Shown in pieces: positions 2,953-54,916 of a stretch of DNA of 64,000 nucleotides. The stretch's first letter is position 1. Each line of letters begins with the position of its first letter. The position numbers and the translations under genes were made by a program. The notes under the pieces were generated by a model, which was not told the DNA's origin, made no database searches, and saw only the letters and a list, made by a program, of their open reading frames with translations. The stretch is from Chthoniobacterales bacterium (lineage in GTDB: Bacteria > Verrucomicrobiota > Verrucomicrobiia > Chthoniobacterales > UBA6821): the NCBI GenBank assembly GCA_019747735.1, contig JAIEQL010000040.1, forward strand, positions 3,179 to 67,178, read 5' to 3'.

Positions 2953-3414
2953 ATGGATTCACTGACCATCAACTCTATTAGCAATCTCCTTTTCAAATTT
3001 GCCAATAATTTTGACTTGAAAAAGTGGGATGAAATGGAGCGTTGCTTAGCCTCACAAGTCGATTGCGATTACACCAGCTTGCGTGGCAAAAAAGAGATCC
3101 TCACAGCCAAAGAGTATGTGCATCAGCGCAGATCAGCATTGGAGCCCCTTCAAATGCAGCATCTTTTTTCTAATTTAGAAATAGATCTTCTCGGCGAACA
3201 TCAGGCAGCCTGCCGCTGTTCCGCATTGATCTTACGGAAACGAGAAGAAAAATTTTTTAACACTCATGCGATTTACGAATTCACTTGCGTGCGCGAGCGA
3301 GGAGTGTGGCTGATTTCAGCGATCAAGCAAACGGTGCTTTGGAATGAGGGAGATACTGAGATTCATTCGGGAGTAGCAGCCTTACTTCTCCAGCCACTTC
3401 CTAACAGGAGTTAG
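2953..3414 (+). CDS. SnoaL-like / NTF2-family protein
   Basis: 153 aa. N-terminus FKFANNFDLKKWDEMERCLASQV.DYTSL resembles SnoaL_4/NTF2-like proteins. Confidence 0.4.
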   Translation: MDSLTINSISNLLFKFANNFDLKKWDEMERCLASQVDCDYTSLRGKKEILTAKEYVHQRRSALEPLQMQHLFSNLEIDLLGEHQAACRCSALILRKREEKFFNTHAIYEFTCVRERGVWLISAIKQTVLWNEGDTEIHSGVAALLLQPLPNRS

Positions 3415-4566
3415 CAAAAATTGTTCGATAGGAATACCTCCTTCGCCAACTAATAAATTTCTAAGTGGCTTGAAGCGTGTTCTAAAAATTTCCAGAGCTC
3501 TCGTTGTAGAGTGACTGCGTCCGCTTTTAACTTCGATGCCAACGATGGTCTTTCCTTTTTTTAATACAAAGTCGACCTCGTGATTCCCTTCGCGCCAATA
3601 TTGGACTTCTATGGTGGTCCCAAAAGTTTGATTGAGCAGATGAGCTCCAACAGCTGATTCTACAAGGCGCCCCCAATGTTCTCGGTTGCTGATAGCCTCT
3701 TCTATAGTGAGTTCAGTGCTTGCGGAGAGGAGTGCTGTGTTGAACACTTGAAGTTTAGGGCTAGAAGCTCGTTGGTGTATTTTCCCATGGGTATATTTTG
3801 CAAGGCCACCTACCATTCCTGCGCTTTGTAAAAGTTGTAAATAATGAGCAAGCGTTACGGTGTTCCCAGCGTCAGTAAGCTGGCCTAACATTTTTTGATA
3901 GGAAAGAATTTGTCCTGAATAATCACAGCTAAGCTGAAAAAGCCGACGCAGGAGACCTGGTTTATCAACACGAGTCATGAGCAAGATATCTCGTGAAATG
4001 CTTGTTTCTACCAGTGACTCCAGGATGTAATGACGCCAACGTTCTGGATTTTTGATGAGTGAAGCCGCACCTGGATAGGCCCCATAATAAATGAATTGCT
4101 TAAGATCCCAGTCAAAGGCTTTTTTTATTTCACTAAAAGACCAATGAGAAATGGGAATAAGTTCAAAACGACCAGCAAGGCTTTCGGTGAGACCTGATTG
4201 AATGAGTAGAGGAGACGAGCCAAGCAAAATAACATGGAGAGAACTTTTAGTATGAGTGTCCTGATCCCATAATTTTTTGACTAGTTCTGACCACTGATGG
4301 ATTTTTTGAATTTCATCTAAAACAAGGACCCCTTTTTTCTTTCCAGCTTTTAAATGTGCTTCTTCCCATTGCTGACGAAGCCATTCTTGTCCTTGTAGAG
4401 CCGGAGCATCCGCCGAAGCGTAATGAAAAGGGATATCTAATTTTTCAAGCAATTGTTGAATCAACGTTGTCTTGCCAACTTGCCGAGGTCCGGCCAGGAC
4501 TTGAATAAAACGACGAGGTTCTTCTAGTCGATCTATAAGAAAATCAAGGAGATACTGACGAATCAT
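3382..4566 (-). CDS. AAA+ ATPase with DUF4143-type C-terminal domain
   Basis: Walker A is GPRQVGKTT and Walker B is VLVLDEIQ. The C-terminal EVDFVL...GIEVKSG looks like a PD-(D/E)xK motif, typical of the AAA_14 + DUF4143 architecture. Confidence 0.75.
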   Translation of the reverse strand: MIRQYLLDFLIDRLEEPRRFIQVLAGPRQVGKTTLIQQLLEKLDIPFHYASADAPALQGQEWLRQQWEEAHLKAGKKKGVLVLDEIQKIHQWSELVKKLWDQDTHTKSSLHVILLGSSPLLIQSGLTESLAGRFELIPISHWSFSEIKKAFDWDLKQFIYYGAYPGAASLIKNPERWRHYILESLVETSISRDILLMTRVDKPGLLRRLFQLSCDYSGQILSYQKMLGQLTDAGNTVTLAHYLQLLQSAGMVGGLAKYTHGKIHQRASSPKLQVFNTALLSASTELTIEEAISNREHWGRLVESAVGAHLLNQTFGTTIEVQYWREGNHEVDFVLKKGKTIVGIEVKSGRSHSTTRALEIFRTRFKPLRNLLVGEGGIPIEQFLLTPVRKWLEK

Positions 4567-4618
4567 AAATTTACTCAGGATTGTGAGTAAATTTACTCAG
4601 GGCGTCGAGTTAAATTAC

Positions 4619-5701
4619 TCAATGTGTTGAGTGAGTTGATGAGGTGTCTTGCAGAAAGAAGGATGTGCTAGGAATAAATTTACTGCTTACTTCTTCGGCA
4701 TAAATCTCTCCCTGTTGGAGTGGTAATTTTTTGACAGGGGCTCCTTTTTTGAGATCACATTTTTTCAGATCAACCCAAAAGACGTTAGGACGCTCACTAT
4801 TTTCAAAAAAGTAGACATCGTTTTTTAAATCAGCAGCACTTCTCCAAATGGTCGCAGCAATGTTGGGATGGACTGGATCAGTCTCTTCCATCATTGGAAC
4901 AGAAACAGTGCGCATGATAGAAAAAACAACAGCAATAGCTTCTTCGGAATTGGCAGTTTTTTTTGCGTTATTTAAAAAGTAGCTCGCTCTTACAAAACGA
5001 TCCTCAGGATTAATTGTTCCTGGAAGAAATAGTCCTTTGAGGTTTTGCCAATAGGCATTCAGCGTCAATTGCTTTTCATAAGTTGGTTCATTGGTCATGA
5101 CATTGTAGGCCTTGTTATGGTGAACAATTAACTTTCCATCGACATATTCAAAGATGGCATTATCTCCCGTCTTATCAGCAATTGCTAAATGGACTGTTGG
5201 CTCAGCTTTATTGGGAAGTTTTTGGGCAACCATGTTGAAAGAATCTTTTCCAAAATCTTCAACGGCCTCTGCAACGGTTGCGTAATTGTCTAAGAAATAT
5301 TGAGCCCAGATTAAGATGGAGATATTTTTGCGATCAGCTTTTGGTTTTCCATAATCGGTAGTTGATAGATAGAGCAAGTTGGCGCAAAGCCCTTCCGAAT
5401 TGATACCATCAGTCGTTCCTATATTGTAGCCACTGGCGATGATGCTTCCATATTTTGAAGTCCAGATAAGGCTCTTGGGATCATTACTGTTGCCACTTCG
5501 TTTGATGCCTGCAGGAAAAGCCCAAAGATCTGTTTTAATATCCTCCATCCAATCCATCGTTCGTCCCATGGCCACCATTTGATCAAGCCCTGTATAGGTA
5601 ATTCTGCTACAAGCGTTACTCTGCCCAGAGATCAAGAGTAGGAGGCTCAAGCAGAAGAAGAAAATGAAGAGTTGTTTTTTGATGCAGGATGTTGGTTTCA
5701 T
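4619..5701 (-). CDS. Secreted Ntn hydrolase, choloylglycine hydrolase / linear amide C-N hydrolase family
   Basis: The signal peptide ends SNA|CSRITYTG, which would expose an N-terminal Cys nucleophile as in penicillin V acylase and bile salt hydrolase. Confidence 0.7.
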   Translation of the reverse strand: MKPTSCIKKQLFIFFFCLSLLLLISGQSNACSRITYTGLDQMVAMGRTMDWMEDIKTDLWAFPAGIKRSGNSNDPKSLIWTSKYGSIIASGYNIGTTDGINSEGLCANLLYLSTTDYGKPKADRKNISILIWAQYFLDNYATVAEAVEDFGKDSFNMVAQKLPNKAEPTVHLAIADKTGDNAIFEYVDGKLIVHHNKAYNVMTNEPTYEKQLTLNAYWQNLKGLFLPGTINPEDRFVRASYFLNNAKKTANSEEAIAVVFSIMRTVSVPMMEETDPVHPNIAATIWRSAADLKNDVYFFENSERPNVFWVDLKKCDLKKGAPVKKLPLQQGEIYAEEVSSKFIPSTSFFLQDTSSTHSTH

Positions 5702-5730: not shown

Positions 5731-6786
5731 TTATTCTTTCCCAAGCGATGCCATATCGATGACAAAACGATAGTGTACATCGCCTTTGATCATCCGTTGG
5801 TAAGCAGTGTTGATTTCTTGAATAGGAATGAGTTCGATCTCTGCAGCAATGTTTTTTTCTCCACAAAAATCGAGCATCTCTTGAGTTTCCTTTATTCCAC
5901 CAATCATCGAGCCTGCAACGGTTTTACGACCATGAACGACATCGAATAAATCTAGTTCTAGAGCTTGGGAAGGAAGACCAACGGTGATTAGTTTTCCATC
6001 ACGTTTTAAAAGTGAGAGATAAGCTTCCAATTTATAAGAAGCAGAGATCGTACTCAAAATAAGATCAAAGCTATTGGCATGTTGGGCCATATCAGCTGGA
6101 TCTTTGGAAACAAGAATTCCTTCCGCTCCCAATTGAAGTGCATCTTGCTTTTTATGAGGGGAGGTGGTGATCACATAAGTCTTCGCTCCAAAAGCATGAG
6201 CAAATTTGACTCCCATATGACCTAGTCCTCCGAGGCCGACAATACCTACCTTCTGGCCTGGTCCCACATGCCAATGCCGCAAAGGAGAGTAAGTTGTGAT
6301 CCCTGCGCAGAGAAGGGGAGCTGTTGCTGCCAATGATAAATTTTCTGGAATGCGCAGCACAAAATCTTCTGTCGTTACAATGCTTTCGCAATAGCCCCCA
6401 TAGGTTGGAGTTTTTTTATCTTGTTCGGTGCTGTTATAGGTAAAGGAAGCTCCTTTCTCACAATATTGCTCTAGATTTTCTTGGCACGAGCTACAGCGAC
6501 GACAAGAATCTACGATCACTCCGACACCAACACGATCTCCTATTTTAAATTTACTCACACTAGAGCCGATCTCTTTTATATGCCCTACAATTTCATGACC
6601 TGGTACCAGCGGATAGACGGCCCCGCCCCATTCATTACGCGCTTGGTGAAGGTCGCTATGACAAACTCCGCAGTAGTCGATGGCAATGTCCACATCATAA
6701 GGTCCTAGAGCGCGACGGTCTAATACGTAAGGTTCCAGTGGTGTGGTGGCGTCGAGAGCAGCGTAGGCTTTGGTTTTGTTTTTCAT
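5731..6786 (-). CDS. Zn-dependent NAD(P) alcohol dehydrogenase (cinnamyl-ADH/YahK-like)
   Basis: Motifs GVCHSD, GHEIVG, CxxCxxCxxxxxxxC and GxGGLGH are all present. 351 aa. Confidence 0.9.
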   Translation of the reverse strand: MKNKTKAYAALDATTPLEPYVLDRRALGPYDVDIAIDYCGVCHSDLHQARNEWGGAVYPLVPGHEIVGHIKEIGSSVSKFKIGDRVGVGVIVDSCRRCSSCQENLEQYCEKGASFTYNSTEQDKKTPTYGGYCESIVTTEDFVLRIPENLSLAATAPLLCAGITTYSPLRHWHVGPGQKVGIVGLGGLGHMGVKFAHAFGAKTYVITTSPHKKQDALQLGAEGILVSKDPADMAQHANSFDLILSTISASYKLEAYLSLLKRDGKLITVGLPSQALELDLFDVVHGRKTVAGSMIGGIKETQEMLDFCGEKNIAAEIELIPIQEINTAYQRMIKGDVHYRFVIDMASLGKE

Positions 6787-9440: not shown

Positions 9441-9592
9441 AACGTGAATGAAAATAAAAAATTTTACGCAATATAATCTGGTTTAAACTGTTCGTTCTCA
9501 TGCCTCACTAACCGTGCAGGTTAGCCACGGCCTTATAACAACCAGTTTTAAATCAGCCTTCTTACGCAAACTTTCTCATTTTCATTCACGTT
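9441..9592. mobile_element. MITE-like nested palindrome, family C copy 1 (TIR AACGTGAATGAAAAT)
   Basis: Left end aacgtgaatgaaaat matches right end attttcattcacgtt. Inner inverted repeats are ctggtttaaactg/ccagttttaaatcag. The TIR is shared with 36012..36203. Confidence 0.7.
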
Positions 9593-18014: not shown

Positions 18015-18135
18015 TTTGGCTAGTCAAGAGTATATGAATTAATGCGTTGACCTTGCTCACACAATCTCACATAGAGACTATGAAGATAAAAAAGAGAGAG
18101 CAAGAGTGGGACAATTTTCGTCTTCATCGGCGCCT

Positions 18136-18309
18136 TAGAGCATATTAAAAAATTCTGTAGCCGCTCATTGCGTCGTCGCTTCGGTGCTCGCTCCATCGAG
18201 TATTGGCTATACACTTCCTCGCTGTGTGGCTCAGCTCCTGGCACTGCATCGACTACAAAAATTTTTAATGATGCTCTAAAATGGCTATAGTTTTATTTAA
18301 AATGCTCTA
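18136..18309 (-). mobile_element. MITE-like element, family A copy 1 (GAGCAT...ATGCTC termini, TA flanks)
   Basis: About 170 bp with TA at both ends. It is near-identical, as reverse complement, to 32229..32402. The TA at 18308..18309 is part of the GH1 stop codon. Confidence 0.8.
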
Positions 18310-19635
18310 AGGTTCCGGATAAGCCTTAATAAACTTGCTGAACCAAATCCCTGCAGGAGTGATGTGGCGTTCGTGGGTTTTTTTGTCGTAGAAAAAAAGT
18401 CCAAACTGACCTTTCCATCCTTCCGTCCATTCGTAGTTATCCACCAGTGTCCATGGGAAGTAGCCTCGCACATCCACCCCATCATTTATAGCGCGTCGCA
18501 TCTGAGCAATATGATTACGGAAGAAAGCGATGGCTTTTTGGGCGCTTTGAGTGGCAATTCCATTTTCGGAAATCACAATGGGCTTGTGATAGCGGTCATT
18601 AACACTGCAAAGAACACGATAGAGTCCTTCAGGATTAATTTCCCACCCCATTTGGGTATAGAGAGAGCTCCGCTCTCCACCGCTACGAAGAAGAAGCTCA
18701 TGAATACTAGAGCTTTTGGAATAATAATAATTTACTCCAATGATGTCACAGGTATCAGCGACCATATCCAAGTGGTCATAGTTTTGGCGTTGATAGATGT
18801 TATAAATGAGCGCTGTGGGATCATGGGTAAAAGAACGCGTGCACTCTGGAAGAGAGTAGATTCCCATAACAATGGCATCAGGGCGCTCTTTGCGTAGGGT
18901 AGCAGCTGCATCGCGAAACATTGCTGCTGCGGTTTTCATAGCTTTTTTATAACTGAAAGGATGTAAGAGAAGTCCAGGCGGCCAATGTCCAGCGATCCAA
19001 CCAAGCTGCAAGGCACCATTGGGCTCGTTTTGGGGGACATAAATTTTTACATAAGGTGCCATGGCGTGGGCTACTCGTTGCACATGGGCATGCCAGGCAG
19101 CCTCAACGTCAGGATGGCAAAAATTGGAGTGCGCTTTATCGTGCGTTTTGTAAAGCCAATCGGGAAAAGTAAAATGCCAGAGGGTAACGATGGGTTCAAT
19201 TCCTGCGGCTTTGAGTTTGCGTGCCATCGTGACATATTGGGCAAGAGCTTGGTGGTTGATGATGCCCGGGCGTGGCTCAATCCGCGCCCACTCTACACCA
19301 AAACGGAAATGATTGACGCCAAGCTGCTGTAGGGCTTGGAGGTCTCGATCAAATTCACTCCACGAAAAGACAGCCTCATCGCCACGTAATGGAACAACTC
19401 CTTCTTCGGCATAGCGATCCCAGTCTGTTTTGAAATACCAAGGTGAATCTTTGGGATAGCCGCGATCTTCATTTTGAAAAGGAGCTGTGGAGACACCCCA
19501 CCAAAATGTTTGTTTGGGAACTGGCTTCAAAGCAGTTCCCTTAACAGAGCAATGATAAGCGGAAGGTGGAGTAACGCAGCTACTGAAACAAACTGTAATA
19601 AGAGCAAGAGATAGCCAAAATATTGTACGCTTCAT
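18307..19635 (-). CDS. Secreted glycoside hydrolase family 1 (beta-glucosidase-like), paralogue A
   Basis: Signal peptide present. Acid/base motif is QNEPN and nucleophile motif is ISENG. Also RFGVEWARIEP and DNYEW. Confidence 0.85.
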   Translation of the reverse strand: MKRTIFWLSLALITVCFSSCVTPPSAYHCSVKGTALKPVPKQTFWWGVSTAPFQNEDRGYPKDSPWYFKTDWDRYAEEGVVPLRGDEAVFSWSEFDRDLQALQQLGVNHFRFGVEWARIEPRPGIINHQALAQYVTMARKLKAAGIEPIVTLWHFTFPDWLYKTHDKAHSNFCHPDVEAAWHAHVQRVAHAMAPYVKIYVPQNEPNGALQLGWIAGHWPPGLLLHPFSYKKAMKTAAAMFRDAAATLRKERPDAIVMGIYSLPECTRSFTHDPTALIYNIYQRQNYDHLDMVADTCDIIGVNYYYSKSSSIHELLLRSGGERSSLYTQMGWEINPEGLYRVLCSVNDRYHKPIVISENGIATQSAQKAIAFFRNHIAQMRRAINDGVDVRGYFPWTLVDNYEWTEGWKGQFGLFFYDKKTHERHITPAGIWFSKFIKAYPEP

Positions 19636-32228: not shown

Positions 32229-32402
32229 TAGAGCATTTTAAATAAAACTACAGCCATTTTAGAGCATCATGAAAAATTTTTGTAGTCGATGCAGTGCCAG
32301 GAGCTGAGGCGCACATCGAGGGAGTGTATAGCCAATACTCGATGGAGCGAGCACCGAAGCGACGACGCAATGAGCGGCTACAGAATTTTTTAATATGCTC
32401 TA
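32229..32402 (+). mobile_element. MITE-like element, family A copy 2
   Basis: TA|GAGCATTTTAAAT...ATTTTTTAATATGCTC|TA. It differs from the reverse complement of 18136..18309 at only about 10 positions. Confidence 0.8.
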
Positions 32403-38457: not shown

Positions 38458-38463
38458 ATCTCT

Positions 38464-38633
38464 TAGAGCATGTTAAATAAAACCACAGCCATTTTAGGGC
38501 ATCATTAAAAATTTTTGTAGTCGATGCAGTGCCAGGAGCTGAGGCGTACAGCGAGGGAGTGTATAGCCAATACTCGATGGAGCGAGCACTGGAGCGACGC
38601 CGTAATGCGCAATTTTAGTCTTTTCAAGACACC
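38464..38633 (+). mobile_element. MITE-like element, family A copy 3 (chimeric 3' end)
   Basis: The first 125 nt or so are collinear with copy 2. The 3' end is replaced by the module also seen at 15245..15289. It begins 6 nt upstream of the SUMF1 gene ATG. Confidence 0.75.
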
Positions 38634-43722: not shown

Positions 43723-43762
43723 AGTTTTGTCCAAGAATGATAAAAAACAGAAGAACTATTCA

Positions 43763-44004
43763 CAGGGATGGAAGCGATAGAAGGGATGGCAGAAAAAAAT
43801 GAATAGCCACAAAAGAACACAAAGAAACGCAAAGATGCCAAACAAAAAAATGTCAGCGGTGTCAGCGGAATAATTAGCTAACTTTAAAAAAATAATGTGC
43901 CTTTTTCTTTGAGTTCCTTTGAGTTCTTTTGTGGCTATTTCTTACATTGATTTTGGACAGAAATGACTCAAACTTCTTTATCCCTTCTATCGCTTCCATC
44001 TCTG
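43763..44004. repeat. 242-bp doubly nested palindrome of GGATGGAAGC and CACAAAG word arrays
   Basis: Outer arms are cagggatggaagcgatagaagggat / atcccttctatcgcttccatctctg. Middle arms are aatagccacaaaagaacacaaagaaacgcaaag / ctttgagttcctttgagttcttttgtggctatt. Confidence 0.8.
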
Positions 44005-44026
44005 TTAGTTTCTTTTTTTTAAAAAT

Positions 44027-51338: not shown

Positions 51339-52067
51339 ATGGGACGCCAATGGCTCTTAGCAAAACGTGAGGTTTCTTCACTTAGAAAATCAAAGACAAC
51401 GGGCAAATTTGTTCGTGAAATTACTATTGCTGCACGTCAAGGGGGAGCTGATCCTGCGGCCAATGCACGCCTAGCAGCTGCGATTGAAAAAGCAAAAAAA
51501 GAGAGTGTTTCACGTGATGTTATTGAACGTGCCATCAGCAAAGGAGCTGGTGTTGGCGGCGAGAAGGCAACGCTCGAGCATATTCTTTTTGAAGGATACG
51601 CACCTCACAAAGTTCCTGTGATCGTGGAAGTCTTCACCGATAACAACAATCGAACGGCTCCTGAGATTCGTGTTCTTTTCCGCGATGCTCAGCTCGGGAA
51701 TCCTGGAAGCAATAAATTTCTTTTTGACCACGTTGGTTTAGTGGAGGCTTATACGACTAATCTCAAAGCCGATCTTGAAGAAGCCGCCATCGAAGCGGGA
51801 GCAAATGAAGTGGAACGACTCACTCATGATCAAAATGATGATATCCCTTTAGAGGTCACCGGAGCCCGTTTCATCACAGATCGCACGACGACTCACGCCG
51901 TTTCCCAATGGCTTCTAGAACAGGGATGGAAAGTCGTTACGAGTGAAATTGGTTACTTGGCAAAAAACTTTCCAGTGCTCGACGAGAATCAACGTGGAGA
52001 GGTGGGGGCTTTTCTTCAAGCTCTGGAAGATCACGATGATGTGCATCGTGTTTGGGCGGCACTATAG
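51339..52067 (+). CDS. yebC: YebC/PmpR-family transcriptional regulator
   Basis: The pattern AKR......K....GK........AAR.GG.DP..N.RL is present. 242 aa. Confidence 0.9.
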   Translation: MGRQWLLAKREVSSLRKSKTTGKFVREITIAARQGGADPAANARLAAAIEKAKKESVSRDVIERAISKGAGVGGEKATLEHILFEGYAPHKVPVIVEVFTDNNNRTAPEIRVLFRDAQLGNPGSNKFLFDHVGLVEAYTTNLKADLEEAAIEAGANEVERLTHDQNDDIPLEVTGARFITDRTTTHAVSQWLLEQGWKVVTSEIGYLAKNFPVLDENQRGEVGAFLQALEDHDDVHRVWAAL

Positions 52068-52229
52068 TGTATTAAATTGAGAAGGGTACACTATAAGCTT
52101 GCGCTTTTTTCCTAGGACTGAGTTTTAAGCCCTTACGTTATCTTTAGATAGCGCTTCGATCTTAAAGCCTTGTCCTAAGAAAAAAATCTCAGCGCTTCTA
52201 ACGCGCCCTTTTCAATTCAATCCACTATA
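52063..52229 (+). mobile_element. MITE-like element, family B copy 2 (TIR TAGTGKATTRAATTGARAAGGG, TA flanks)
   Basis: The element spans 52065..52227, flanked by TA at 52063..52064 and 52228..52229. Its first three nt are the yebC stop TAG. It shares the conserved about 65-nt core with 1764..1922. Confidence 0.8.
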
Positions 52230-52281
52230 GTTGTGTGATTAGGAAATTATTTCTAAAAATTGTATCTGCGCGGAAACGCTC

Positions 52282-52444
52282 TATATTCAAATTACTTAGA
52301 AAGTACATGAAAGAACGCAGAGATTTTTAGAAAAGGCAAGGCCGAAGAGCGAGCGCTATATCTTATAACGGGAGTAATGAGAACGCGGTCTTTTCCTGAA
52401 AAGATCAAGTCAATTTTGTGTGATTTCTAAGTAATTTGACTATA
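52282..52444 (-). mobile_element. MITE-like element, family B copy 3 (reverse orientation, different TIR)
   Basis: Arms are tatattcaaattacttagaaa / tttctaagtaatttgactata. The reverse complement of the interior carries CCCGTTAT..ATAGCGCTCGCTCTTCGGCCTTGC..AAAAATCTCTGCG. Confidence 0.7.
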
Positions 52445-52451
52445 ATATGGC

Positions 52452-53135
52452 ATGAACTTCACTTACTACGGTCACTCTTGTTTTCAAATCGATGTTGCGG
52501 GAAAGAAGCTTCTTTTTGATCCTTTTATCACGCCCAATCCACTTGCTTCTGGTGTTGATATCACTCAACTAAAACCCGATTACATTTTTTTATCCCATGG
52601 GCATTATGATCATGTTGCCGATGTAGAGCGTATTGCCAGTCAAAGTGAAGCCGTTATTGTGGGATGTTATGAGGTTGTCGAATGGTTTCGTGCTAAGGGG
52701 TTCGAGAAAAATCACAGCATGAACATCGGTGGCTCTTGGGAGTTTGATTTTGGAAAGGTCACGCTTACCCCAGCAGTTCATTCTAGCAGTATGCCAGATG
52801 GTTCTTATGGAGGGGTTGCTGGCGGTTTTTTAATCAAAACAGAGGAAGGCTTTTTTTATTACAGCGGTGATACGGCTCTTTTTTCTGACATGAAATTGTT
52901 AGCAAGCAAGGGAGCATTAGCGTTTGCAGTCCTTTGCATCGGGGGTAATTTTACCATGAACGCCAAAGAGGCTCTGCAAGGTGCTCAGTGGCTAGGATGC
53001 AAAGAAATCATAGGCGTACATTATGATACTTTTCCTGCGATTAAAATAAATCACACTGCAGCACAGAATCGCTTTCAAAAGGAAGGGAGTCAGCTTCACT
53101 TGCTGCCTATAGGAGAAAGTTTATCTTTTTCATAA
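52452..53135 (+). CDS. Metallo-beta-lactamase-fold hydrolase (UPF0173 family)
   Basis: YYGHSCF, the LSHGHYDH motif, and 227 aa. Confidence 0.8.
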   Translation: MNFTYYGHSCFQIDVAGKKLLFDPFITPNPLASGVDITQLKPDYIFLSHGHYDHVADVERIASQSEAVIVGCYEVVEWFRAKGFEKNHSMNIGGSWEFDFGKVTLTPAVHSSSMPDGSYGGVAGGFLIKTEEGFFYYSGDTALFSDMKLLASKGALAFAVLCIGGNFTMNAKEALQGAQWLGCKEIIGVHYDTFPAIKINHTAAQNRFQKEGSQLHLLPIGESLSFS

Positions 53136-54916
53136 TGCCAAAAACTTCCTTTTTTCGTAAATCCCATCTGCCCAAAAAAATCTCGGCAGATAAAATTGGC
53201 AGGAGTTTCTATGACCTCAGCAGTAATCACAGCGCCATTGAGATGGTGGATGATGCGCGTGAGTACTGACTTCTCGATATCTAGTCCAAGGACACGGCAG
53301 CTCATGACAAACTGTAACAAATGATGATCCTGAATAAGAACCACACCTACTAAGCCATAGGTAGTGAATTTATCTGCTACTTGGAACACATAGAAAAACC
53401 CTTTTTTCTTAAAAAAATCAGTACATTCTTCCGGGGTCCATCGTTTGCCAGTGGTGTTAAATTGATTTGTTTTGTTCAACAATTCAAAAGCACGAGCAAA
53501 ATGAGGGTGTGCCGTATGATCAATTTTCATGATTTCAATACGGAGTTGAAGTGATTCTAAAAATTCCTCTCGCGTTGTGAAACTCGCTTTCTGTGCATGT
53601 TCACGTTGCGCTTGAATAGATTGAGTGCGTTGAGAGGATTCTTGGGAAATGTGGGGCGCTTGTAGCTCTGGGGCCCAAAGTAACACTCTTTTGATATGAT
53701 AAAGATCCGCTCCCAATGTTCTAATTTCTGGAAAAGCTCGTTGCACCTTCTCTCGTTCCACAGGATTATCATCAAGAAAAAGAGCGTTGCCAGGAAGAAG
53801 ATGTACTTCTTGTAAGATTTCTTGAATGTTGTCGCACTTATCTCTTCTGTTAATTTTTTTGACGACAAAATCTTCTGGCCTTAAATAATTTTGAAAAAGA
53901 GTTTGCCATTCTTTAAGAATCAGCTCCTCCTCATTGTTGCTAGCAATGGCAAGGAGAATCCCTCTTTTTTTTAGAAACAGAAGAGCCTCCATCACTCCTA
54001 AAGGCCATCCTTCTAGCCCTGGCCCTAGCATTCCCTCTTCGGCAAAAACTCCTCGCCAGAGCGTATCGTCAAGATCGCAAATGACTATTTTGATGGCATC
54101 TTGTTGACGGAGGGTCTTGTAGTGAGCGGCGATTTCATGCCAGAGGGCATCAATGAAGCTGTCGGCTCTTAAAGTGTACCCTTGGGAATATCTTTTAGGG
54201 GGATGTAATCTTTTTTGGTCGTGCCGAAAATCACTATCACTTACGAGGGCTCCATGACTGGCGACGTGAAAAATATCATCTTGAATATAGCGACGCCCTA
54301 GTGAAGCCGCTATTTCATTGGCATCGATAAAGTAGACATTTGATCTTGCATGAACTAACTCCGAAAGCCTTTTGTTGAGCTGATCTATGTAATAAGAGAT
54401 ATTTCTTAAATCGTAAGCAGGGAGAAAGCGGCCCATTAAGTTTTGTTGAGGAAGGAAAAAATTGGTAACAAAAGTCGTGAGGTGATGTTCTGTATTATAT
54501 TGAAGAAGATAATCAAAAAATAACTCTAGGAGTTTTACTGATTCTTCAAAAGCTTCCCTGTGTCCCTTGATGTCGTGATAATCTAGATGCAAATAAGAGC
54601 TCTCGTTCATAATAACCCTGAGCGGGATCTGCACTATCTGAAAAGAATATTCATCAATCGCTTTTGGAGGTGAACTGGGAAGGGGCGCAATGTGGTGGGT
54701 GACTATATGATCAACAGAGGCCTCTTTACTGGCTGTAAAAACTTTCCTTTTAAATTGTAATGCAAGCGCGTTTGAAAAACAGGCACCTATAAGAAGTATA
54801 TTTTTAATCGGCACTTCTTCTCTGCTAAGATCAATCGGAGCCCTGTGATAAAGCTCATCACGGAGTGAGGGTGAGGGCTTCTTGTTTTTATTGCTGACTA
54901 GCTGTAAGGGTATCAT
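53096..54916 (-). CDS. FkbH-like protein (HAD-IIIC phosphatase core with N- and C-terminal extension domains)
   Basis: The HAD motif I context is VICDLDDTLWRGV, with FLDDNP as motif IV. The 606-aa length and tripartite layout match FkbH-domain proteins. Confidence 0.7.
   Translation of the reverse strand: MIPLQLVSNKNKKPSPSLRDELYHRAPIDLSREEVPIKNILLIGACFSNALALQFKRKVFTASKEASVDHIVTHHIAPLPSSPPKAIDEYSFQIVQIPLRVIMNESSYLHLDYHDIKGHREAFEESVKLLELFFDYLLQYNTEHHLTTFVTNFFLPQQNLMGRFLPAYDLRNISYYIDQLNKRLSELVHARSNVYFIDANEIAASLGRRYIQDDIFHVASHGALVSDSDFRHDQKRLHPPKRYSQGYTLRADSFIDALWHEIAAHYKTLRQQDAIKIVICDLDDTLWRGVFAEEGMLGPGLEGWPLGVMEALLFLKKRGILLAIASNNEEELILKEWQTLFQNYLRPEDFVVKKINRRDKCDNIQEILQEVHLLPGNALFLDDNPVEREKVQRAFPEIRTLGADLYHIKRVLLWAPELQAPHISQESSQRTQSIQAQREHAQKASFTTREEFLESLQLRIEIMKIDHTAHPHFARAFELLNKTNQFNTTGKRWTPEECTDFFKKKGFFYVFQVADKFTTYGLVGVVLIQDHHLLQFVMSCRVLGLDIEKSVLTRIIHHLNGAVITAEVIETPANFICRDFFGQMGFTKKGSFWHYEKDKLSPIGSK

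Follow-up and report, generated by a model that had tools for sequence, protein, structure and literature searches.

The window analysed here, i.e., a stretch of 64,000 nt from a Chthoniobacterales bacterium (Verrucomicrobiota; GenBank assembly GCA_019747735.1, contig JAIEQL010000040.1, positions 3,179 to 67,178), harbors three short transposable elements of the miniature inverted-repeat type (MITEs). They are non-autonomous insertions flanked by TA, in which lineage-specific arms of ~33 nt surround a core of ~95-100 nt, and this core is present in at least seven phyla, from Verrucomicrobiota to Bacillota, Bacteroidota, Gamma-proteobacteria, and Bdellovibrionota. We infer that the core works as a folded single strand; that it acts as an RNA is the interpretation favored here, although tentatively and with slightly less than even confidence. 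On the basis of sequence likeness, the three elements can be read as MITEs of a Correia superfamily carrying a strand-specific folded module.

A sequence-only reading of the window had proposed three elements with different terminal repeats and a shared internal core of ~65 nt. They are present at essentially the same coordinates, their ends being refined here to include the terminal TA. In the following list, P1 and P1' are the two halves of a helix, and R1 is the covariance model of the core, whose training set included copies 1 and 2.

1762-1924, sense strand '-': copy 1, whole element, 163 nt with the TA at either end counted in, arms TATACCTTGCGCG...CGCGCAAGGTATA
1793-1892, sense strand '-': copy 1 core, full-length R1 match of 78.2 bits, in the order CGCTGAGATTTTT / P1 / CAAGGCG / apical hairpin CGCTATG-CGTA-CATAACG / CAACGAAG / P1' / AAAAATAGCCAG
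52063-52229, sense strand '-': copy 2, whole element, 167 nt, arms TATAGTGTATTAAATTGAGAAGGG...CCCTTTTCAATTCAATCCACTATA
52096-52197, sense strand '-': copy 2 core, full-length R1 match of 63.2 bits
52230-52281: spacer of 52 nt separating copy 2 from copy 3, whose sense strands are divergent
52282-52444, sense strand '+': copy 3, whole element, 163 nt, arms TATATTCAAATTACTTAGAAAG...TTTCTAAGTAATTTGACTATA
52313-52411, sense strand '+': copy 3 core, R1 match of 68.0 bits
52316-52328, '+': copy 3, box CGCAGAGATTTTT
52337-52343, '+': copy 3, box CAAGGCC
52354-52370, '+': copy 3, apical hairpin
52382-52388, '+': copy 3, box AACGCGG
52399-52409, '+': copy 3, box AAAAGATCAAG

The terminal arms are 43-57% identical between copies and the core (94-97 nt) 64-73%, so that different termini and a common interior are both borne out; the shared core is real, even though the length first assigned to it is too short, the actual one being ~95-100 nt. 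The box AAAAATCTCWGCG, written on the strand used by the sequence-only reading (hereafter, the antisense strand), is exact in all three copies, and two occurrences of the combination GCCTTG-N9-AAAAATCTCWGCG are present in the window when up to three mismatches are allowed, versus 0.06 expected; a fourth core box, CTTGATCTTTTT on the same strand, is easily recognised in copy 3, whereas it is degenerate in the other two copies. Each copy forms one long hairpin (z values against dinucleotide shuffles of -10.6, -8.5, and -3.5 for copies 1, 2, and 3, respectively, on the antisense strand); the inverted arms of copies 1 and 3 measure 31-32 nt with 84-88% complementarity, and those of copy 2 pair in the fold. 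The elements (163-167 nt) thus have the generic features of MITEs, i.e., a size below 300 nt, no open reading frame (ORF), and terminal inverted repeats. They also occur in multiple copies: three in the 64 kb window and at least four in the metagenome-assembled genome (MAG) SKS3.bin34, a relative with a YebC identity of 81%, whose loci L009, L067, L068, and L090 contain near-identical relatives of copy 3, as does L150. TA flanks every copy, those of SKS3.bin34 included.

On the sense strand, the core reads 5'-CGCAGAGAUUUUU-(P1)-CAAGGCG-(variable hairpin)-CAACGCAG-(P1')-GGAAAAAGAUCAAG-3' and folds into a rod. Starting from the base, an outer helix is followed by an internal loop, with 5' (C)GCA opposite 3' AA(G), then by the two pairs GA:UC, a tandem G·A, and a U5:A5 helix running into the variable P1 of ~8 bp; internal loop B, with 5' CAAGGCG opposite 3' CAACGCAG, comes next, and a variable apical hairpin stands at the tip. 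Covariation was assessed on 29 cores from ~15 lineages and at least six phyla, taken in their better-folding orientation, on a manually defined structure, which comprised the three outer pairs, GA:UC, U5:A5 together with P1, and a C:G closing pair. Standard pairs fill 88.3% of the cells, versus 68.6% after shuffling (reached in 0/500 shuffles) and 43-51% when the partners are slid by one to three columns; double-sided changes were counted in 121 cells, versus 42 in the shuffled sets (again 0/500), and the covariation score is 0.527 versus 0.157, with RNAalifold in agreement. Each P1 position shows four to six pair types. The loops remain constant while the stems vary, the exception being a variant of Spirochaetes and Clostridia with CGC...GCG closing the outer loop.

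The compensatory changes that the sequence-only reading had noticed between the stems of two copies are real: those stems differ at nearly every position and still pair, and the excess of pairing and of double changes extends to many copies. A very recent common origin is excluded as their cause, the stems differing at almost every position and the hosts spanning phyla. That a folded DNA or RNA is under selection, as opposed to being neutral filler, is supported by the covariation, by the conserved loops, and by the strand specificity of the pairing. What did not hold is the strand chosen for the fold: in 28 of the 29 cores the complement, i.e., the sense strand, is the more stable one, by a mean of 7.8 kcal/mol, and the same is true for all three full elements of the window (-76.6 kcal/mol on '-' vs -68.9 on '+' for copy 1; -49.5 on '+' vs -35.6 on '-' for copy 3). 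In the paired columns of 46 distinct model-aligned sequences, G·U/U·G pairs amount to 65 and A·C/C·A pairs to 14 on the sense strand; a double-stranded palindrome alone would not give this asymmetry.

These data bear on the possibility that the elements have no function at all, the palindrome being kept symmetrical by templated (quasi-palindrome) correction and the core being the outcome of common descent and horizontal transfer. Long palindromes are homogenised by intrastrand template switching, and MITEs do transfer horizontally; however, templated correction would erase the two mismatched internal loops, which are constant across phyla, and under it G·U should not outnumber A·C on either strand, at variance with the counts just given. 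Moreover, the stems have diverged to saturation and the loops have not changed. This explanation is in large part refuted by the covariation and by the strand-specific pair counts, and appears very improbable.

Some known motifs were compared with the core and discarded. The plasmid ssoA signal (CS-6 TAGCGT, in the apical loop) and a HUH nick site (CTTG/AT) both lie on the worse-folding strand; a boxA-like UGAUCUUUUU is antisense to rRNA; the integration host factor (IHF) consensus at GATCAAG has flanks that do not fit; and a kink-turn in the outer loop would have AA, not GA, on its non-bulged strand.

The distribution of the core was explored by scanning 185,579 species genomes with a pattern derived from the box of the sequence-only reading, which demanded the 5' boxes CGCWGAGATTTTT and CAAGGC. 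At least 111 loci were retrieved, ~60 of those listed being chance matches; the genome of the window itself is not among the matches listed. At least ~45 of the loci listed share much more than the pattern itself, namely, on the antisense strand, (A/G)CTTGATCTTTTT followed in turn by a short helix, by (C)TGCGTTG, by a variable hairpin, by CGCCTTG, by the second half of that helix, and by AAAAATCTCTGCG. R1 gave 49 matches of 26-88 bits in 734 kb. Its matches outside the training set include those in L122 (a viral contig, 70 bits), L150, L143, and L135, and the second copies in L003, L053, and L091. The hosts among the matches listed are Spirochaetota (with many copies per MAG), Oscillospiraceae and other Clostridia, Defluviitaleaceae, Selenomonas sputigena, Bacteroidetes, Flavobacteriales, Microbulbifer, Methylococcales, Shewanella fodinae, Bdellovibrionales, Cerasicoccus, a Candidatus Peribacteria MAG (Candidate Phyla Radiation, CPR), and the viral contig L122. 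In two Clostridia loci (L001 7600-8000 and L008 6500-6800) the core lies in tandem or partial tandem duplications, with a period of 107 nt in L008 and no recognisable terminal repeats.

A metagenome scan for the Verrucomicrobia subfamily yielded just three true members, and no match was obtained when the cores of gamma-proteobacteria, Clostridia, and Defluviitaleaceae were compared by BLAST with plasmids, E. coli genomes, and phages; a Microvirus match to the core was discarded as due to chance (9 bits). The comparison with Rfam recommended by the sequence-only reading gave no matching family at the gathering threshold or at E <= 1: when the whole window and the elements in 18 loci were searched at the gathering threshold, neither gave a match (only rRNA and tRNA genes scored in the loci), and with relaxed limits E <= 10 yielded only long-hairpin noise (microRNA families), a gamma-proteobacterial copy having no match at E <= 1. 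A literature search, performed also by sequence string, retrieved no description of the wider core family, whose breadth and structure appear undescribed within the literature searched.

The arms surrounding the core differ from one lineage to another: they are of the type TATAG... in Verrucomicrobia and Defluviitaleaceae, GGGCACCTCTAAAAA in Spirochaetes and Flavobacteriales, GTCCGTACCGAAATATTT in Bdellovibrionales, and GTGTAAATAATAAG in a Bacteroidetes MAG, and they are not recognisable in several Firmicutes and in the copies embedded in rRNA operons. In the Spirochaete MAGs, the MITE termini are equal to those of an IS1182-family insertion sequence (IS) of the same genome. The locus L091 of a Spirochaetaceae MAG contains, at 2990-4651, a decayed element of this family (Pfam DDE_Tnp_1_6/DDE_Tnp_1, with matches named 'IS1182 family transposase'), whose terminal repeat GGGCACCTCTAAAAA is that of the local MITEs; it is interrupted by two MITEs (3476-3640 and 3819-3985) with 5-bp duplications (TTATT/TTATA and TATAA), and its right end holds CGTGAGCATTTTGACAACGCAG...GGAAAAG, corresponding to the 3' half of the local MITE core. 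Since the same core rides with TA-duplicating and with 5-bp-duplicating systems, it behaves as cargo and not as a transposase-binding end. A cognate autonomous element with matching ends was found only for the Spirochaete branch; none was found in the 64 kb window, and a tblastn search with the Spirochaete transposase against the window and the other loci revealed no homologue.

In the light of L091, the core might be regarded as the joined subterminal regions (promoter, leader, and transposase 3' end) of an IS1182-like parent, in which case its conservation would reflect functions of the parent IS and not of the MITE. Besides the terminal repeat and the 3' core half of the L091 element, ~35 nt at the left end of L125, a full-length relative of this IS, are in common with the MITE. 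However, the left end of the IS does not contain the 5' core half (CGCAGAGATTTTT...CAAGGCG), R1 has no match in L124 or L125 (two full-length IS relatives), and the IS1182-family elements L161, L162, and L164 have none of the four boxes; the termini that accompany the core are also of at least four unrelated kinds, or are missing altogether, and no homologue of the transposase was retrieved from the window or from the other loci searched. This origin thus fits the data poorly, as does the neutral palindrome, and we consider it unlikely. In L125, two long inverted segments, GGCGTAG...GGGCTGTGTCAG (700-800) and CTGACACAGCCC...CTACGCC (2440-2560), bracket the transposase gene and surround a direct repeat; the transposase gene therefore lies in the loop of a large potential hairpin.

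When compared with known systems, the window elements share with the TA-duplicating MITEs (derivatives of IS630/Tc1-mariner or of the IS5 group, e.g., RUP and Nezha) the small size, the inverted ends, the TA duplication, and the absence of coding capacity, but ordinary families of that kind take their definition from the termini, the interior being arbitrary, whereas here the interior is conserved and the termini vary. The IS1182-family MITEs of Spirochaetes (L012, L014, L091, and others) contain the same core and differ in that their duplications measure 5 bp instead of being TA and that their termini are GGGCACCTCTAAAAA; the core does not characterise IS1182 ends in general. Repetitive extragenic palindromes (REP) and REPINs with their REP-associated tyrosine transposase (RAYT) are likewise hairpin-forming, multi-copy, and long-lived in lineages, and single-strand structure matters in them too; however, they consist of 20-40-nt units with conserved heads, no TA duplication, and an associated RAYT gene. 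The window elements fall outside the REP/REPIN class on account of their size, TA ends, and single long hairpin (the neighbouring ORFs were listed and not screened for RAYT), and a REPIN study kept Correia elements as a separate sequence group (bioRxiv 10.1101/2021.07.10.451892).

The closest known system is represented by the Correia elements (NEMIS/CREE) of Neisseria, which are known since 1986-88 and whose mobilising mechanism is not determined (PMC2649163). They show a TA duplication, a directional conserved core, promoters at their ends, and, in the long forms, an IHF site (PMC2649163, PMC10969869). Nine of them were fetched from Neisseria prophage contigs by means of the published terminal repeat (PMC5039591); R1, which was built without any Neisseria sequence, matches all nine and a tenth copy in L119 (14-28 bits, E from 3e-4 to 0.5, model positions 13-92), and every Correia element is aligned in the same way, UUUAAAUCAGGA-CAAGGCG ... 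CAACGCCG-UACUGGUUUAAA. The directional Correia core (TCAGGACAA end, CCGGTACGG end) can be aligned over P1 and CAAGGCG ... CAACGCC; the remaining interior is unalignable and the outer loop absent. Similarity extends to the ends of copy 2: its right end, as reverse complement, is TATAGTGGATTGAATTGAAAAGGG, to be compared with the Correia terminal repeat TATAGTGGATTAAATTTAAA (PMC5039591), and the two copy 2 ends, TATAGTGGATTGAATTGAAAAGGG and TATAGTGTATTAAATTGAGAAGGG, are 69-72% identical over 29 nt to the 26-bp Correia repeat TATAGTGGATTAA(CAAAAA|ATTTAAA)..., with the first 11 nt identical at one end and a common start TATAGTGGATT. Copies 1 and 3 have only TATA(C/G/T) in common with that repeat.

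The two groups share TA at both ends with target duplication, a length of 100-170 nt, one long hairpin without ORF, a high copy number, insertion beside and inside genes, similar TATAG termini in the case of copy 2 (end TATAGTGGATTGAATTG vs Correia TATAGTGGATTAAATTT), and, as it appears from the modest R1 matches, a directional interior with CAAGGCG 5' and CAACGC 3' of helix P1. On the other hand, Correia elements are devoid of the CGCAGAGA / GAUCAAG loop and of the U5:A5 helix of the core family, the arms of copies 1 and 3 are unrelated to theirs, the IHF site of their long forms was not recognised in the window elements, and the published accounts consulted place them in Neisseria spp. only, whereas the core family spans phyla and the window host belongs to Chthoniobacterales (Verrucomicrobiota). 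The alignments show kinship at the sequence level, in which Correia elements would represent a reduced relative of the wider core family.

A different arrangement was disclosed in rRNA operons, where the copies are arm-less. The sense copies (n=8) are always on the rRNA strand and end 0-6 nt before a stable RNA, and an outer helix of 6-8 bp reaches the base preceding the tRNA. They are located as follows.

L003, within 3352-3770 (which holds both L003 copies), rRNA strand: copy before tRNA-Ile
L011, 7600-7717, rRNA strand: copy before tRNA-Ile
L016, 115-231, rRNA strand: copy before tRNA-Ile
L003, second copy, rRNA strand: before tRNA-Ala
L023, 2900-3017 (identical to L040, 791-908), rRNA strand: copy before tRNA-Ala
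L081, 19-136, rRNA strand: copy before tRNA-Ala
L053 (Selenomonas), 5903-6148, rRNA strand: two tandem copies with a period of 127 before 16S, of which the second adjoins the 5' end of 16S

In Microbulbifer epialgicus, two sense copies are accompanied by an antisense copy, degenerate, at 3494-3569. This flush siting before spacer tRNAs and 16S, seen in several orders, suggests an RNA-processing role, with which it fits; it could also reflect target choice. The E. coli K-12 rrn spacer was considered as a possible homologue, since the 16S-tRNA-Glu spacer (L123 2539-2685) has CAAGGCG and, ~100 nt further on, CAACGCG near the tRNA, in the order of the core; the homology was dropped because R1 gives no match there, even with filters off.

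Four features led us to favor the RNA interpretation: helices with many G·U pairs, the tandem G·A, the fact that copies in rRNA operons are oriented with transcription, and the precedent set by RNase III in Neisseria. Transcription of the core would result from read-through or, as in Correia elements, would start at promoters in the element ends; the RNA produced would take the shape of a discrete rod that is processed, bound by a host factor of broad conservation, or both. The long duplex might undergo processing of the RNase III type, which is documented for Correia elements, whose transcripts are cleaved by this enzyme (PMC10969869, PMC2649163). Such an RNA module would be portable between MITEs using different transposases. 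In position and shape the core resembles the RNase III hairpins of rRNA precursors, which are long duplexes interrupted by loops and located in rRNA spacers beside stable RNAs. It can presumably be likened also to the RNase III sites of phage T7 early mRNA; to our knowledge, however, no sequence is conserved across phyla in known RNase III sites, unlike in the core. More specifically, the core might be an undescribed phylum-spanning structured module that a universally conserved host factor would recognise; its most probable form would be a rod of processed small RNA containing two conserved internal loops. This fuller proposal is possible, but less likely than not.

Several observations weigh against the action of the core as an RNA. 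The MITE-type copies show no orientation bias with respect to the flanking ORFs (18 in the same and 21 in the opposite orientation), and for this reason a function in host read-through transcripts is not what conserves the core. The apical hairpin CGCUAU...AUAACG of Verrucomicrobia has a conserved C·A on the sense strand, which is a U·G on the other one. A simple sigma-70 consensus scan of 51900-52600 called no promoter, including at the TATAAT (52441-52446) that straddles the junction between copy 3 and its flank, upstream of the hydrolase gene described below. The invariance of CGCWGAGATTTTT and CAAGGC among the fetched loci is by construction, since the scan pattern demanded both, and independent support is limited to the 3' boxes, the helices, and the matches outside the training set. 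The Correia matches are modest (14-28 bits) and cover P1 and loop B only. Lastly, RNA and single-stranded DNA are not separated by the pairing data, because single-stranded DNA also tolerates G·T pairs and tandem G·A.

Single-stranded DNA is indeed the main rival: one strand would fold, for instance on the lagging-strand template or during DNA uptake, the loops being the recognition site of a widely conserved mobilising machinery and the variable arms needing only to pair. Strand-specific folding independent of the orientation of the neighbouring genes speaks for it, as does the presence of the same core with unrelated arms or with none. Since rRNA operons are co-oriented with replication, the sense strand of their copies, all in one orientation, is the lagging-strand template. 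In addition, Correia elements are without a transposase found so far (PMC2649163). However, the GC skew makes '+' the leading strand throughout the window, yet the sense strand is '-' for copies 1 and 2 and '+' for copy 3. The single-strand transposases of IS200/IS605 and IS91 make no target duplication, whereas copy 1 has a TA duplication, and the Spirochaete copies have 5-bp duplications and the ends of a DDE-type IS1182 element; furthermore, a DNA helix is weak when it contains two to four G·T pairs. We consider this explanation plausible but, on balance, less likely than not.

The insertions have affected the following genes.

1719-2400, '+': pfs/mtnN-like gene (methylthioadenosine/S-adenosylhomocysteine, MTA/SAH, nucleosidase), split by copy 1; N-terminus MTIGIMGAIPQEVEL at 1719-1763
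From 1925, '+': resumption of the pfs-like gene, IKEEMLIKETIELGGAFFTLG; a further frameshift near 1985, then ELYGSEVVLVFSRIGK
51339-52067, '+': yebC, 242 aa; last codon and stop, CTA TAG, extend into copy 2
52452-53135, '+': metallo-beta-lactamase-fold hydrolase gene (Pfam Lactamase_B), directly 3' of copy 3

Copy 1 is located inside the pfs/mtnN-like gene and not in an intergenic region. The N-terminus of the interrupted gene matches that of E. coli Pfs over 30 residues, as far as LGG. When 161 nt and one TA are deleted, GAG TTA ATC AAG is recovered, so that ...PQEVELIKEEM... becomes continuous in frame, which shows that the insertion duplicated TA. Because a second frameshift is found near 1985 besides the split, the gene is probably a pseudogene. 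Just upstream, a VapB/VapC-like pair (905-1210 and 1207-1647) was assigned from the translations.

As already proposed from the sequence, yebC takes its stop codon from the first of the two copies located downstream, the TAG at 52065-52067 being part of the TATAG with which copy 2 terminates. The protein shows 100% identity with the YebC of a Chthoniobacterales MAG (P0121). From the TA duplication, a pre-insertion end AALVV* would follow; the YebC relatives have 243 aa and end in AALK*/AAVK*, unlike the proposed end, and the closest one has GCA CTG AAG TAG, with unalignable downstream DNA and no element. Empty sites were sought through YebC and hydrolase homologues, and no true one was found, synteny not being kept and contigs breaking at the repeat. 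The end of copy 3 lies 7 nt before the ATG of the hydrolase gene (52452). The public short-read (Logan) contigs with an identical hydrolase (L126, L127) all break 36 nt upstream of the gene, within copy 3, as expected for a multi-copy repeat. At 53117-53191 (-), where the hydrolase gene and a 606-aa ORF converge, R1 gives a weak match (11.7 bits, E 1.3, GAGAUUUUU...AAAAAGAU), which is probably due to chance and could be a decayed remnant.

The window contains other repeats. Unrelated palindromic elements with inverted arms of 27-34 nt are located at 9441-9592, at 43802-43939 (nested in 43762-44005), and at 702-835; the one at 43802-43939 contains AAAAATGTCAGCG, yet has no match to the core model. 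A separate repeat of 149-174 nt is present in three copies (18136-18309, 32229-32402, and 38462-38610) with 91-97% identity, one of them inverted with respect to the other two; the copy at 18128-18317 has its own inverted ends of 35 nt, and the repeat is presumably what the sequence-only reading called 'family A'. Several MITE-like families are thus present in the genome of the window.

As regards the genome of the window, a pfs-like gene has probably been inactivated by the elements, the yebC end has been rewritten, and element sequence now makes up the whole 5' region of a hydrolase gene. The interior of MITEs is usually taken as filler; here it is conserved, covarying, and strand-specific, and it is found with unrelated ends in at least seven phyla. 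Correia elements are thereby tied to a far larger family, in which CAAGGCG / CAACGC and the flanking helix are marked as nucleotides under long-term constraint. If the core is indeed a module recognised by a host factor, such recognition would let Correia-type and other hairpin MITEs persist or move, and it would explain both the repeated uptake of the core by different transposon families and the arm-less copies before tRNA-Ile, tRNA-Ala, and 16S. The core would then provide a handle on the mobilisation of Correia elements and on the role of their conserved interior.

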